A DNA stretch of 64,000 bases. Origin: an uncultured cyanobacterium. GTDB lineage: Bacteria > Cyanobacteriota > Cyanobacteriia > PCC-6307 > Cyanobiaceae. The translations under genes and the position numbers were made by a program. Below the pieces are notes generated by a model. The model was not told the origin of the DNA. It searched no databases and saw only the letters and a list, made by a program, of their open reading frames with translations. This document shows positions 2,443 through 30,051 of the stretch, piece after piece (within the stretch, counting starts at the first letter, position 1; the number at the start of each line of letters is the position of its first letter). The stretch lies in contig CAVONQ010000005.1 in NCBI GenBank assembly GCA_963697335.1, positions 64,001 to 128,000 of the forward strand, given 5' to 3'.

Positions 2443-2467
2443 AAAAAACCCGCGGCAGAGCCGCGGG
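2443..2467 (-). terminator. Intrinsic terminator after amt
   Basis: Minus strand CCCGCGG-CTCTG-CCGCGGG followed by T6. Confidence 0.8.
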
Positions 2468-2510
2468 CTGGTGGGAGCCTGGGCCGAGGCTTCAGCCCCG
2501 GCTCGCAGCT

Positions 2511-3948
2511 TTACTTGGCGCTGGCAGCGAAGTCGGGGTAGGACTCCATGCCGTGCTCGCTGATGTCGAGACCCTCGATCTCCTCCTTCTCGGAGACGCG
2601 GATGCCTCCAAAGATGCCGCCAATGACGGACCAGGTGATCAAGGAAGCCACGATGGCAAAGATCGCGTAGGCGAGAACGCCCACGATCTGAAAGCCGAGC
2701 TGGGCAGGACCATGCCCAGTGAACAGGCCCTTGTCCACGTTGAACAGACCCACGGCCAGGGTGCCCCAGATGCCGCAGGTGCCGTGCACAGAGAAGGCAC
2801 CCACCGGGTCATCGATCTTGAGGCTGTCGATGAAGGACACCGAGAGCACCACGAGGGTGCCACCGATGAAGCCCACCACCCATGCGCCAGCCATCGAGAA
2901 GCCGTCGCAGCCGGCCGTCACAGCCACCAGCCCGGCCAGGATGCCGTTGATGGTCATGGTCAGGTCGGGCTTGCCGCCCCGGATCTGGGACACCAGGGTG
3001 CCGGAAATACCGCCGCCGGCGGCTCCCAGGGTGGTGGTGACGGCCACGAAGGGAACCGTTTGATCCATGGCCAGAACAGAGCCCGGGTTGAAGCCGTACC
3101 AGCCGATCCAGAGGATGAGGCAACCCAGGGTGGCAATGGCCATGTTGTGACCGGGGAGGGCCTGGGGCTTGCCTTCGGCGAACTTGCCAATCCTGGGGCC
3201 AAGCAGGAGGGCGCCGATCAGACCGGCCCAGGCACCGAAGGAGTGAACGATCGAGGAACCGGCGAAATCGATGAAGCCGAGCTCGGAGAGCCAGCCACCA
3301 TTCCACTGCCAGGAGCCGGAGATGGGATAGAGGATCCCGACCAGCACCAGGGAGAACACCACGAACTCACCGAACTTGATGCGCTCGGCCACCAGGCCGG
3401 AAACGATGGTGGCGGCCGTGGCGGCGAAGGCGACCTGGAAGAAGAAGTCGACTGTGGGAACAAGGGACCCTTCGGTCACCATCTCAGGTGTGACAGTGGG
3501 GTCGAAGAACAGGCCCTTGAAGAACAGCCAGCCACCCAGCACCGAATCTCCGTACATCACGGAGTAGCCGATGAACCAGTAGGCAGTGGCGGCCAGGGCG
3601 AAGACGATGAGGTTCTTCAACAGGATGTTGACCGCATTTTTTTGGCGGCACATCCCCGACTCCACCATGGCGAAGCCGGCATTCATGAAGATGACCAGAA
3701 TCGCGCAGATGAAAATGAAGAGGTTGTTGGCCAGGAAGGCGGCCGTGAGCTCCGGAAGCTCAGCAGCGTGGGCCGAGAGGTTGAACACCCCCAGGCCGAA
3801 CAGCGCCAGGGGAACGCAGGCCAACCAGATGAGGCCGCGCTGGGAAGAAAGACCTCGGATCCTGCTCATCAACAGGGCTGGGGCTTCCAACAGACTCGCC
3901 TCATTGCAGACGTTTCGTGCGCCTGGGAGGGTGCGAAGCAATGGTCAT
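2511..3948 (-). CDS. amt: Ammonium transporter (Amt family); apparent 1-nt insertion near 3903 splits off the first 15 codons
   Basis: FMNAGFAMVESG, DFAGSSIVH, WYGFNPGS and DDPVGAFSVHG motifs, both conserved His present. ATG at 3948 gives MTIASHPPRRTKRLQ then CAA-T-GAG, which rejoins EASLLEAP if one base is removed. Confidence 0.93.
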
Positions 3949-4039
3949 GGGCAGATCAGAAAGACGGCTGCTCGATGGAGATTGAATGCCGCAAGACATC
4001 CATTGCGACTGACAATGCGCTCTGACGCTGCAGGCCGAT

Positions 4040-4053
4040 GTTCTTTTCGCTAC
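4040..4053 (-). promoter_or_regulatory. Possible NtcA site upstream of amt
   Basis: Minus strand GTA-N8-AAC (consensus GTA-N8-TAC, one mismatch), followed 22 nt later by CATTGT as a weak -10. Confidence 0.4.
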
Positions 4054-4179
4054 CAAATGAGCCTGCAAGCCCTGGCCAGGCCCGCCCTGGCCCCGCAGAA
4101 GTGCAACGTTTCAGCACGAAACCGCAGATCTGTTCGCAGTGGACAGAAATCCGGGCTTTGATGGGGGCTCAGGACAAAA

Positions 4180-4292
4180 CGTTGGGCCTATGCACTCGCC
4201 TTGGACTCCCCTGAGCCCGTCAGGCCGTGCCTGCTGGAAGTAGCCCGATCCTCGCGTCGACCGCGGTCACGCCGAGAACGGACGAAGCAACG
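4180..4292 (+). ncRNA. Glutamine riboswitch, glnA RNA motif type, with extended stems
   Basis: CGTTGG (4180)...TGGAAGTA (4235-4242)...GAAGCAACG (4284-4292) match the conserved core; CGTTG/CAACG form P1; lies upstream of a DUF4278 gene. Confidence 0.75.
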
Positions 4293-4379
4293 CTCCTCCA
4301 CGTCAAGGGGGTCGTCAACGACGCCACGACGCACCGAGCCGCCCTACTTGGCTCTTCTCTTCCAACTGAGGACGCCACC

Positions 4380-4565
4380 ATGACCAATTCCCCACTGCGC
4401 TACCGCGGCGTGGCCTACGACGCCAGCCAGCACGAGCACCCCTCCAGCGAAGCCGTGGAGCACACCTACAGGGGCCTCCACTACGTAGCACCCCTGCGGC
4501 ATGAGCCGGCACCGGTGGATCCCTCCACCGATCTGCAATACCGGGGTGCCCACTACCACCACTGA
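4380..4565 (+). CDS. DUF4278-type small protein (61 aa)
   Basis: Three YRGxxY repeats (LRYRGVAY, TYRGLHY, LQYRGAHY); GAGG RBS before ATG. Confidence 0.8.
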   Translation: MTNSPLRYRGVAYDASQHEHPSSEAVEHTYRGLHYVAPLRHEPAPVDPSTDLQYRGAHYHH

Positions 4566-4708
4566 GCCTGGCGAGGGGTTGGCCGGCAGGGCCAGCCCCG
4601 ACGGGCCCGTCTTGATGGGGTTCAACGGCTACGCCTGCAGAAAGCCGTCATTGCTACAGAAGCGGGCGCTTTCAGCCTCTAGAAGAGGCTGGGTCAACCT
4701 GGTATCAC

Positions 4709-5053
4709 GTGAAACAGATTCAAGCCATTGTGCGCCCGGAAAAGCTGGACGCGGTCAAGGACGCCCTTGTGGCCATCGGCATCAACGGCATCACCGTGGC
4801 AGCGGTTCAGGGCTTCGGACGCCAGATGGGCCACACCGAGGTGTACCGCGGCGTGAAGGTGGAGGCCAAGCTGCTCACCAAGATGCACATCACCACGGTG
4901 GTCACTGATCAGGTGGTTGACAGTGTGGTGGAAGCCATCAAGACGGCAGCCCGCACTGGTGAGATCGGCGACGGCAAGATCATCATCACTCCGGTGGACA
5001 ACGCCATCCGGATTCGCACCGGCGAATCCGGGGACGACACTCTCCAACCCTGA
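4709..5053 (+). CDS. PII-family nitrogen regulatory protein, divergent paralog
   Basis: [26 protein letters not shown] and IRIRTGE PII signatures; T-loop atypical. Confidence 0.9.
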
Positions 5054-5072
5054 GACCCCGATCAGGACGGCC

Positions 5073-6335
5073 ATGCCGGCTTCGGTCCCCCAGAGCATGG
5101 GTCCACTGTCATGGCCGGAACTCGCCTCCTGGGCAGAACCCCAGGGGGATAGGGTCCAGGGCGGCACCAATTCCCAGGCCCAGCTCAGGCTGTTCGGTCA
5201 GCCCGAGACAGAGGTGCGGGTCACCCTGTACCGCGATCACCACGCCTGGTGTCCCTACTGCCAGAAGGTGTGGCTCTGGCTGGAGGAGAGGCGGATTCCC
5301 TATCGGATCCGCAAAGTCACGATGTTCTGCTACGGCGAAAAGGAGCGCTGGTATCGCCAGCTGGTTCCTTCCGGCATGCTGCCGGCCCTGGAGCTGGACG
5401 GCGAGCGGATCACTGAGAGCGATCGGATTCTTGAGGCCCTGGAGAGGGCCTTTGGCCCTTTGGTGGCAGGGATGGGCCATCCCCAGGTTCTGCCGCTAAG
5501 GCAGCTGGAGCGGAACCTGTTCCGTAGCTGGTGCCAGTGGCTGTGTCAGCCCCAGCCCAGCCCAGCCGCCGAGCAGGAGGCCCGCCTCCAGTTCCAGCGC
5601 ATGGCCGCCCGGCTGGAGCAGGCCCTGGAGGAAGGGCCCGGGCCGTTCCTGCTGGAAGAGCTGAGCACTGCCGACCTCGTGTTTGTGCCCTACGTGGAGC
5701 GGATGAACGCCTCCCTGGCCTACTACAAGGGGTTTCTGCTGCGCCAGGAACACCCGGCGATCGACCGCTGGTTCACCGGTCTGGAGCAGCGCTCCACCTA
5801 CCTCGGCACCCAGAGCGACTTCCACACCCACGCCCACGACCTGCCACCCCAGATGGGCGGCTGCTACGCCAACGGCAGCGCTGCGCAACAGGCCCTGGCC
5901 GCCCGCATCGACCGGGGCCCCTGGCCGCTGAGTGACGCCTCGGGCGCCGATCCGGAAACCTCCGCCCCAGAGCCAGGCGATGCCGCTGCCGTGGCTCTGG
6001 GCCGCATGCTGCGCCACCGCATCCCCCTGCAGCAGCGCCAGGCCCTGGCCGGACCGGCCATGGACCAGGCCCTGCGCTGCGCCCTCAGTCACCTGGTGCA
6101 CGGCACACCCTGCCCTCCACCAGCCGGCACGGCCGTTGGCCTGCGCGCCCTGCGCGATCGCATCAGCGTGCCGCGCGACATGCCCCTGCATGCGGCTCGA
6201 CACCTGCGGACCAGCCTGGAGACCACCGCCGCCCTCGATCCGCGGGATCCCTCAGCCCAGCCCGACTCCCTCCCCGTCCACCACCGACGCGACCAGGATC
6301 CCCAGCCCTTCCTCAGCTCCGCACCTAGCGTCTGA
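5073..6335 (+). CDS. Glutathione S-transferase family protein
   Basis: [21 protein letters not shown] thioredoxin-like N-domain and ITESDRI motif. Confidence 0.85.
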
Positions 6336-29967: not shown

Positions 29968-30051
29968 TGGGGGCAGGGGGACTTGAACCCCCACAACCTC
30001 GCGGTCTGCAGATTTTAAGTCTGCTGCGTCTACCGATTCCGCCATGCCCCC
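29968..30051 (-). tRNA. trnL: tRNA-Leu(UAA), intron-less, CCA not encoded
   Basis: GGGGGCA/TGCCCCC acceptor stem, anticodon arm GCAGA-CTTAAAA-TCTGC, long variable arm, GTTCAAGTC T-loop. Confidence 0.97.

Follow-up and report, generated by a model that had tools for sequence, protein, structure and literature searches.

A conserved nitrogen module in Cyanobiaceae joins a GlnK-Amt-like gene pairing to a putative long-armed glutamine riboswitch and a DUF4278 peptide

The ammonium transporter gene amt1 of an uncultured Cyanobiaceae cyanobacterium stands back to back with a putative glutamine riboswitch, a gene for a short DUF4278 peptide and a gene for an atypical PII signalling protein, here called PII2. 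The stretch analysed comprises 64,000 nt of contig CAVONQ010000005.1 (GCA_963697335.1) and is referred to as a whole as the window. amt1 lies on the minus strand, and the riboswitch, the DUF4278 open reading frame (ORF; 4380-4565) and the P-II ORF (4709-5053) lie on the plus strand. All three proteins exceed their Pfam cut-offs: Amt (PF00909, 412 bits, with TIGR00836 also above cut-off), DUF4278 (PF14105, 52 bits) and P-II (PF00543, 95 bits). This is the layout, orientations included, that a sequence-only reading of the same DNA had described. The host genome (2.58 Mb, 98.8% complete) carries one DUF4278 gene, two PII genes and, on a genome search, a single amt. The riboswitch and the peptide gene together are termed the cassette, and the locus comprises the following features:

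2447..2469, minus strand: intrinsic terminator of amt1, a 10-pair stem with a T run.
2511..3948, minus strand: amt1, ammonium transporter, sole amt in the genome; start ATG 3948; spurious extra base near 3904-3906.
4012..4054, minus strand: putative amt1 promoter; NtcA-type site 4039-4054 (GTA-N8-AAC), 22 nt, -10 box CATTGT 4012-4017.
4131..4162, plus strand: likely cassette promoter; palindrome over the -35 position (4131-4145), -10 candidate 4157-4162.
4178..4296, plus strand: putative type-1 (glnA) glutamine aptamer with long arms; P1 4180-4184/4288-4292, E-loop GGAAGTA 4236-4242, GAAG 4284-4287, C60 at 4293.
4293..4373, plus strand: predicted expression platform; CTCCTC (4293-4298), complementary to the ribosome-binding site (an anti-RBS), pairs with the RBS GAGGA (4368-4372).
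4380..4565, plus strand: 61-residue DUF4278 peptide; YRG at residues 8, 30 and 54, each a predicted beta-hairpin with R-G at the turn.
4575..4599, plus strand: GC-rich hairpin 3' of the peptide stop codon, without a U-tract in this genome.
4643..4685, plus strand: putative PII2 promoter; NtcA-type site 4643-4658 (right half GCTACA strong), 22 nt, -10 candidate TAGAAG 4680-4685.
4709..5053, plus strand: second PII (PII2); R47 and the nucleotide and 2-oxoglutarate residues retained, S49/E50/Y51 replaced by V/K/V.

The locus is a real conserved nitrogen module, in which a GlnK-Amt-like pairing stands beside a long-armed type-1 riboswitch cassette, and the part played by DUF4278 is possibly new. 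An earlier suggestion of a conserved nitrogen module aimed at ammonium uptake is borne out: a second PII lies beside amt, a predicted glutamine ON-switch precedes the peptide gene, and the peptide gene stands at amt1 or a PII gene in all 70 loci examined. All regulation described here is read from motifs, which tells against the regulatory claims as a whole. RNA evidence consists of contigs from four metatranscriptome runs of close relatives, DNA was checked against four runs, all trees are quick trees, and citations are to passages of the papers named.

The longest amt frame opens at TTG 3941, whereas the start of its relatives aligns with ATG 3948; the gene and its strand had been called correctly, and the true start is ATG 3948 instead of the TTG first chosen. 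An extra base near 3904-3906 breaks the frame. Because this base is missing from all four DNA runs, a broken amt1 is rejected, and amt1 is read as an intact gene of about 478 codons carrying an assembly error. One of the four runs, only four substitutions away from the window, is short of further single bases at positions 2429, 2508 and 4065; together with the base near 3904-3906, these extra bases sit mostly in base runs, and the host assembly likely carries insertion errors able to mimic frameshifts elsewhere. A frame change, near residue 171, also interrupts the amt1 of a close relative (L147:2183-3165, G132).

The aptamer has no match to RF01739 at gathering level in an Rfam scan of the window. 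In a permissive scan the entire RF01739 model aligns to 4178-4296, with 15.1 bits against a gathering score of 35 and an E-value of 3.3. The low score is attributed to long P2 and P3 inserts: that of P2 has 50 nt (median of 66 orthologues 32) and that of P3 41 nt (median 14), the P3 insert being among the four longest of that set. The three-way-junction core is present, with P1, the E-loop GGAAGUA, GAAG, and C1, G22, C58, G59 and C60, of which C1, G22, C58 and G59 are glutamine contacts in the glutamine-I structure (PMC6698751). A search of the 2.58 Mb genome for this core pattern gives a single match, against none in 20 shuffled genomes. Of 70 orthologous peptide genes, 66 have the core upstream, with P1 as CGTTG/CAACG in 64 of the 66. 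The gathering score is reached by 7 of 40 orthologous loci scanned; an earlier scan of 20 loci, eight of them with the peptide, yielded none above it, the best reaching 32 bits. The call of a glnA-type riboswitch therefore stands as regards the core and the orthologues that pass the cut-off, but the host copy itself falls below the gathering score. The element is likely a long-armed variant that works like RF01739 and is not a formal Rfam hit. Judged by their core (66/70 loci), putative type-1 glutamine riboswitches are common in the host's family and mostly missed by Rfam (7/40 scanned loci pass).

An anti-RBS of the form CTCCT[C/T] follows the aptamer in 57 of 66 orthologues, and that of the host is predicted to pair with the RBS GAGGA of the peptide gene, an arrangement postulated for gifB by Klähn et al. 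(PMC6212724). The riboswitch thus very probably controls translation of the peptide and is ON at high glutamine. Folding calculations pull the other way: folding of the host P2 and P3 arms does not stand out from that of shuffles (59/200 and 42/200), and the computed opening of the RBS on locking of the aptamer is small, from 0.48 to 0.55 here, rising in six of eight aptamers. The P2 and P3 inserts fold as hairpins in all eight aptamers tried. A terminator-like hairpin at 4336-4354 is rejected as an attenuator; it is broken by variants in close relatives and absent from short leaders.

Upstream of the aptamer, a 15-bp palindrome (4131-4145, TGTTC-N5-GRACA) is found in all 12 cassette loci beside amt1 and PII2 and in 8 of 34 loci without the peptide gene, and it is conserved across the family wherever the cassette resides. 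The region 4131..4162 is likely the cassette promoter. The host genome holds 11 palindrome-like matches at two mismatches or fewer, none other clearly at a promoter, and the palindrome is accordingly rejected as a regulon element. It is also rejected as CGRE1, since its length and flanks differ from those given in passages of PMC6191309, and as an NtcA site, being one base too short. A sigma-70 site scan found none. RNA cover is absent over 3998-4185 in all four runs, which fits an untranscribed gap between divergent promoters.

The DUF4278 domain spans residues 6-59 of the 61-residue peptide. A profile search finds the peptide in 91 of 201 family genomes, once in each. Seventy of these copies were examined, namely the 30 best matches and 40 chosen for coordinates not at amt1. 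Each carries three YRG motifs, and all 70 lie at Amt or PII genes: 22 are divergent from amt1 without a PII, 40 are upstream of canonical glnB and eight stand with amt1 and PII2. Of the remaining 21 copies, 14 are placed at amt1 or PII by other loci or by coordinates. Forty further amt1 upstream regions hold the peptide in eight cases and a PII in none. The flanks of the 40 glnB-linked copies match the host's own glnB region and, from their sequences, read as queF-like and tlyA-like genes. The peptide has no match among 50,697 phage records.

That the peptide acts on Amt1/PII rather than on glutamine synthetase (GS) is a tentative reading, which we would hold at somewhat under an even chance. 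A role like that of the GS inactivating factors, which the sequence-only reading had mentioned, is doubtful because the peptide is the N-terminal domain of IF17 only: it ends at residue 61, right after the domain, and has no C-terminal IF7-like region. In IF17 the C-terminal part is crucial for GS binding and the N-terminal part is dispensable for function (PMC6316151, PMC6212724). The peptide could still be an IF17-like GS inactivator, or its adaptor or stabiliser, placed at amt1 and PII by the clustering of nitrogen genes or by a single block move; this we regard as unlikely. Such a role accords with the known pairing of aptamer and domain, type-1 aptamers preceding DUF4278 genes in 25 of 28 genomes (PMC6212724), and with the fusion of the three-YRG domain to an IF7-like part in most cyanobacteria, away from amt and PII. 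Outside the host's family, three YRG motifs occur in 31 of 32 DUF4278 proteins, most with a long IF17-like C-terminal part, and none of 30 DUF4278/IF17-type loci has amt or PII within 1.5 kb, a finding that counts against an action on Amt1/PII. The 70 peptide loci are moreover not independent, because relocation of one cassette-ORF-glnB block can explain both genomic homes. It remains that both of these homes are Amt/PII genes, which argues against a role at GS.

The ORF of this block encodes about 80 residues with a WLQxHF motif and has no Pfam family over cut-off (L008:3647-3892, plus strand; L280:1134-1451, minus strand; L314:1819-2067, plus strand). It lies between peptide and glnB in 38 of 40 glnB-linked loci, follows the peptide gene in 14 of the 22 loci with amt1 but no PII, and separates peptide and PII2 in 6 of 12; it is absent from the host genome and is likely a further member of the module. 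The simplest history has one block moving between glnB and amt1, its glnB copy becoming PII2, which the tree neither shows nor rejects: grouping of PII2 with cyanobacterial GlnB is not rejected by the approximately unbiased (AU) test (p-AU 0.55; 50 of 126 rows, 113 columns).

A more specific idea for the peptide is speculative and, on balance, doubtful. In one polypeptide chain the DUF4278 peptide may imitate the PII T-loop tip with three prongs, YRGxxY hairpins that would plug the three pores of the Amt1 trimer. An AlphaFold2 model of the peptide has three beta-hairpins with R-G at each turn (predicted local distance difference test score, pLDDT, 72.5), in the same hairpin register as the T-loop tip in the model of PII2. 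The motif YRGxx[Y/F] is found in 204 of 210 peptide repeats. Among T-loops it is present in 27 of 27 from cyanobacterial GlnB and in 43 of 47 from other PII proteins, while the background is 5 of 142 YRG sites. The R47 tips lie 31.3 Å apart in GlnK-AmtB (PMC3198391), a distance within reach of repeats spaced 21-25 residues apart. A second plug would agree with the match of three hairpins to three pores, with the glutamine ON-switch and with the frequent loss of the cassette beside PII2, and overlapping jobs would be expected to leave the cassette often gone (34/46) or aptamer-less (4/12) where PII2 joins amt1. Several points weaken the idea. The peptide model is of low confidence overall (predicted template modelling score, pTM, 0.30), PII2 itself has no aromatic residue at 51 (0/46), and hhalign puts repeat 2 on PII residues 45-55 with a probability of just 1.8% (P 0.027). 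GlnK R47A and Y51A both retain AmtB binding (PMC4274968), so the tip motif alone need not confer binding, and a short motif can match by chance. Foldseek with the peptide model returns no match at E <= 0.001, and the small supplementary file of the PII pull-down in PMC6603209 has no row for IF17 or ssr1528 and is uninformative.

PII2 has the PII fold with T-, B- and C-loops, by domain match and structure model. It is not the only PII of the host: the genome was searched for a separate canonical glnB, which is present at C7:104200, its product carrying S49 in the T-loop and sharing 53% identity with PII2. Orthologues of PII2 occur in all 16 same-genus genomes, and a match of at least 67% identity is found in 34 of 301 family genomes, in five genus groups; among 251 phylum genomes there is no match above 60% outside the host's own genome. 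The orthologues form one clade apart from cyanobacterial GlnB (Shimodaira-Hasegawa-like approximate likelihood ratio test, SH-aLRT, 99). Sixty-one loci were retrieved, 48 of them distinct, with promoters counted on 46 amt1-PII2 loci and residues on 47 proteins. The synteny that the sequence-only reading had proposed to survey is conserved: PII2 is divergent from amt1 in 46 of 48 loci, directly in 34 and with the peptide gene in between in 12. The two exceptions are L030, where PII2 is away from any amt, and L048, which looks degraded.

Invariant in the 47 orthologues are R9, G35, G37, Q39, Y46, R47, G48, K58, G87, D88, G89 and K90, and the host protein has all effector residues (G35, G37, R38, Q39, K58, G87, G89, K90, R101 and R103). 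In the PII2 model R47 sits at the T-loop hairpin's tip, the T-loop strands being 43-46 and 49-52. R47 is the residue of GlnK that blocks the pore at AmtB, and phosphorylation of S49 blocks NAGK binding (PMC6243067); binding of PII to Amt1 in Synechocystis requires R9 and is weakened by S49D (PMC6603209). PII2 departs from canonical cyanobacterial GlnB in having neither S49 nor the YRGSE[Y/F] tip and in its separate clade. Position 49 is V in all 47 orthologues, and V, M, I or L stands at position 51 in almost all of them. Since S49 is absent, PII2 likely cannot be phosphorylated at 49 and likely does not serve NAGK, and since GlnK Y51A still binds AmtB (PMC4274968), V51 would be no bar to a role at Amt1.

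Upstream of PII2, 41 of 46 loci carry the motif G[C/A]TACA with TA/AA a further 21-22 bases on; shuffles carry it in 0.36% of cases. This spacing fits the NtcA-activated layout, in which the site is centred near -41.5 (PMC8092223), and the NtcA consensus is GTA-N8-TAC. The left half of the site is palindromic but degenerate across loci, and the host glnA promoter shares the GCTACA right half. A loose amt NtcA motif lies upstream of amt1 in all 46 loci. The motifs suggest that nitrogen limitation likely induces amt1 and PII2 jointly, as it does amtB and glnK. Three observations speak against this: in the host the left half of the PII2 site is weak and the -10 is missing its last T, a second NtcA-like match (GTA-N8-AAC, 4701-4716; partly conserved) overlaps the PII2 start codon, and amt and glnK usually form one operon whereas the genes here are divergent. 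The overlapping match may serve repression or may simply arise from the coding sequence there.

On these features PII2 is probably an Amt1 regulator with its own NtcA promoter. Alternatively, PII2 may modulate the canonical PII network, by mixed trimers with GlnB, as a PipX sink or at nitrate and urea transporters, and be merely co-induced with amt1. Canonical PII already binds Amt1 in Synechocystis (PMC6603209), PII2 lacks Y/F51 and has K or Q at position 38 in 40 of 47 orthologues, one of the 48 loci (L030) has it away from any amt, and a duplicated PII of unclear role is reported in Synechococcus WH5701, as cited in PMC8042125 and PMC7344720. The placement of PII2 beside amt1 in 46 of 48 loci, the invariance of R47 and R9, and the presence of amt1 in all 15 glnB2 strains of a published table (PMC9361551) make this alternative unlikely.

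A third PII type, with a YRG[N/T]EF tip, is co-oriented with a distant amt2-like amt (30% identity) and adjoins the locus in some genomes (L029:4439-6079, L035:291-1908, L036:287-1904); it nests with picocyanobacterial GlnB in the tree. Two record titles look wrong: L009, titled Bradyrhizobium, bears a picocyanobacterial amt1-PII2 locus, and L041, titled Bifidobacterium, groups with Planktophila-type PII.

The sequence-only reading had drawn the locus as a single glutamine-triggered circuit through PII, a form in which it is not supported. The corresponding alternative to a PII2 with its own promoter is one riboswitch-peptide-PII transcript, in which glutamine would raise PII as well, so that PII would be produced when needed to close Amt1. 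In two of the four runs an RNA contig reaches from the peptide gene into PII (4424-4845 and 4400-5122), and a third run tiles across the gap. The hairpin after the peptide, found in all 12 cassette loci, has a U-tract in five but not in the host, so that there is no U-tract terminator between peptide and PII2 in this genome. The weak left half of the PII2 site, the NtcA-like match on its start codon and the 40 loci with the cassette upstream of canonical glnB point the same way. Because of the bridging contigs and the missing U-tract, some read-through from the peptide gene into PII2 is possible. A contig spanning two genes, however, is not proof of one transcript. The PII2 promoter motif is conserved (41/46), 34 of 46 amt1-PII2 loci have no cassette, the aptamer is lost from 4 of 12 cassettes at such loci, and U-tract terminators stand in 5 of 12; the anti-RBS targets the start of the peptide gene, PII2 lying 143 nt and a hairpin farther on. 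Since so many loci do without the cassette, the riboswitch probably does not directly drive PII2, and a single glutamine-controlled transcript is distinctly unlikely.

That PII2 is a decaying duplicate, the aptamer a dead remnant and the locus an accident of rearrangement is highly improbable: the aptamer does lie far under the Rfam cut-off, many relatives have lost the cassette or keep an eroded one (at least five changes) and L048 looks degraded, but the ligand residues are invariant in 47 of 47 PII2 proteins at 60-92% identity, promoter spacing is conserved, the aptamer core and anti-RBS are intact, and the RNA libraries of relatives contain contigs of aptamer-peptide, amt and PII.

Taken together, the locus may set two separately wired brakes on ammonium uptake, PII2 and a glutamine-induced peptide. 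(i) To judge by the conserved motifs, nitrogen limitation would lead NtcA to activate amt1 and PII2 from back-to-back promoters, so that transporter and brake are made together. (ii) By analogy with work on GlnK-AmtB and PII-Amt1, a rise in ammonium would lower 2-oxoglutarate, upon which ADP-bound PII2 would extend its T-loops and R47 block the pores, while the NAGK job would stay with canonical GlnB. (iii) Following the gifB model, accumulation of glutamine would let the aptamer free the RBS of the peptide gene only. (iv) Hypothetically, the YRGxxY hairpins of the peptide would then target the Amt1/PII system; in the simplest case they would insert into the three pores of trimeric Amt1. Steps (i) to (iii) as a joint reading, with the role of the peptide at Amt1/PII left open, stand at about even chances.

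Picocyanobacteria are major primary producers, and the shut-off of their ammonium uptake and the question whether short IF17-like peptides act on GS are both open in print (PMC6316151, PMC8042125); the locus makes both testable. A catalogued but unexplained second PII, glnB2, gains a likely target and promoter, and DUF4278, the unexplained N-terminal domain of IF17, gains a possible function. Were the T-loop mimic real, glutamine would shut ammonium uptake in picocyanobacteria by way of an RNA switch and a peptide, independently of PII and 2-oxoglutarate. In other cyanobacteria the DUF4278 domain that begins IF17 would link the inactivation of GS to the closing of Amt, and lineages with an Amt1-dedicated PII2 could drop the peptide. 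A riboswitch-made peptide imitating the plug of a signalling protein would be a new form of channel gating.

The neighbours of the module include a glutathione S-transferase gene (5073-6335) that begins 19 nt past PII2 and is the same neighbour in most orthologous loci; one RNA contig spans from the peptide into it. A glutathione reductase gene (990-2354) lies downstream of amt1, with a ferritin gene farther on. The only match in the window at Rfam gathering level is a tRNA gene with a long variable arm (29968-30051, minus strand).

Among known systems, the nearest to the cassette is RF01739 with gifB/IF17 (Klähn et al. 2018, PMC6212724), with which it shares P1, the E-loop, the ligand nucleotides, the anti-RBS after C60 and a DUF4278 gene downstream. 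It differs in its long P2 and P3 arms, which escape Rfam, in its occurrence in picocyanobacteria and in a peptide that has no IF7-like GS-binding part and is tied to amt1/PII. In the passages seen in print, links of the aptamer to amt and PII are noted only in environmental sequence. In the full-text literature no description was found of the amt1-glnB2 pair, its promoters or the likeness of YRG to the T-loop, though subscription papers and supplements could hold such, and 'YRG' does not appear in the IF17 or DUF4278 papers among the matches listed, as far as their available passages go.

A second DUF4278 type (L150-L173), with two or three YRG repeats, has a glutamine-II riboswitch in 20 of 20 loci scanned from the host's genus and is not in the host. 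These type-2-riboswitch peptides of picocyanobacteria are likewise short, DUF4278-only and furnished with YRG motifs; in contrast with the peptide described here, they have another N-terminus and two or three repeats, with no amt or PII neighbour in the loci checked. Type-1 and type-2 aptamers never occurred together in the 60 genomes of Klähn et al. (PMC6212724), whereas both are present in five of five genomes chosen for a cut-off-passing type 1. Type 2 is also present in three of seven other genomes with a type-1 core, the type-1 cores of these three lying below the cut-off. The host genome has no type 2, and only the amt-linked DUF4278 type.

Most cyanobacterial genomes have one PII (PMC8042125). 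The Cyanorak catalogue nevertheless lists glnB2 (CK_00041583), a second PII of freshwater and brackish picocyanobacteria (12/67 and 3/17; Cabello-Yeves et al. 2022, PMC9361551). All three named strains shared with the present set, T1B-Tous, CH-040 and 8F6, score glnB2 = 1 in Table S4 of that work; its available passages give no gene context, promoter, residue analysis or target. PII2 is probably this catalogued glnB2, by the strain pattern of three strains only. Laichoubi et al. 2011 reportedly studied a second PII of WH5701. Since that strain scores glnB2 = 0 (PMC9361551), its second PII is probably another duplicate.

With GlnB-Amt1 of Synechocystis PCC 6803, PII2 shares the fold, R9 and the effector residues; unlike Synechocystis-type GlnB, it has V, K and V for S49, E50 and F/Y51 and falls in a separate clade. 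As canonical glnB is still present, the Amt1 job would be split off to the paralogue PII2. The arrangement recalls GlnK-AmtB of E. coli and archaeal GlnK-Amt in the tie of a PII gene to amt, a nitrogen-regulated promoter motif, the PII fold, the R47 tip and the residues for ATP/ADP and 2-oxoglutarate. It differs in that amt1 and PII2 are divergent, with separate NtcA-type promoters instead of one operon, and in the lack of Y51 in PII2, and therefore of a uridylylation site. PII2 would work like GlnK, in a locus that is not to be filed as a glnK-amtB operon.

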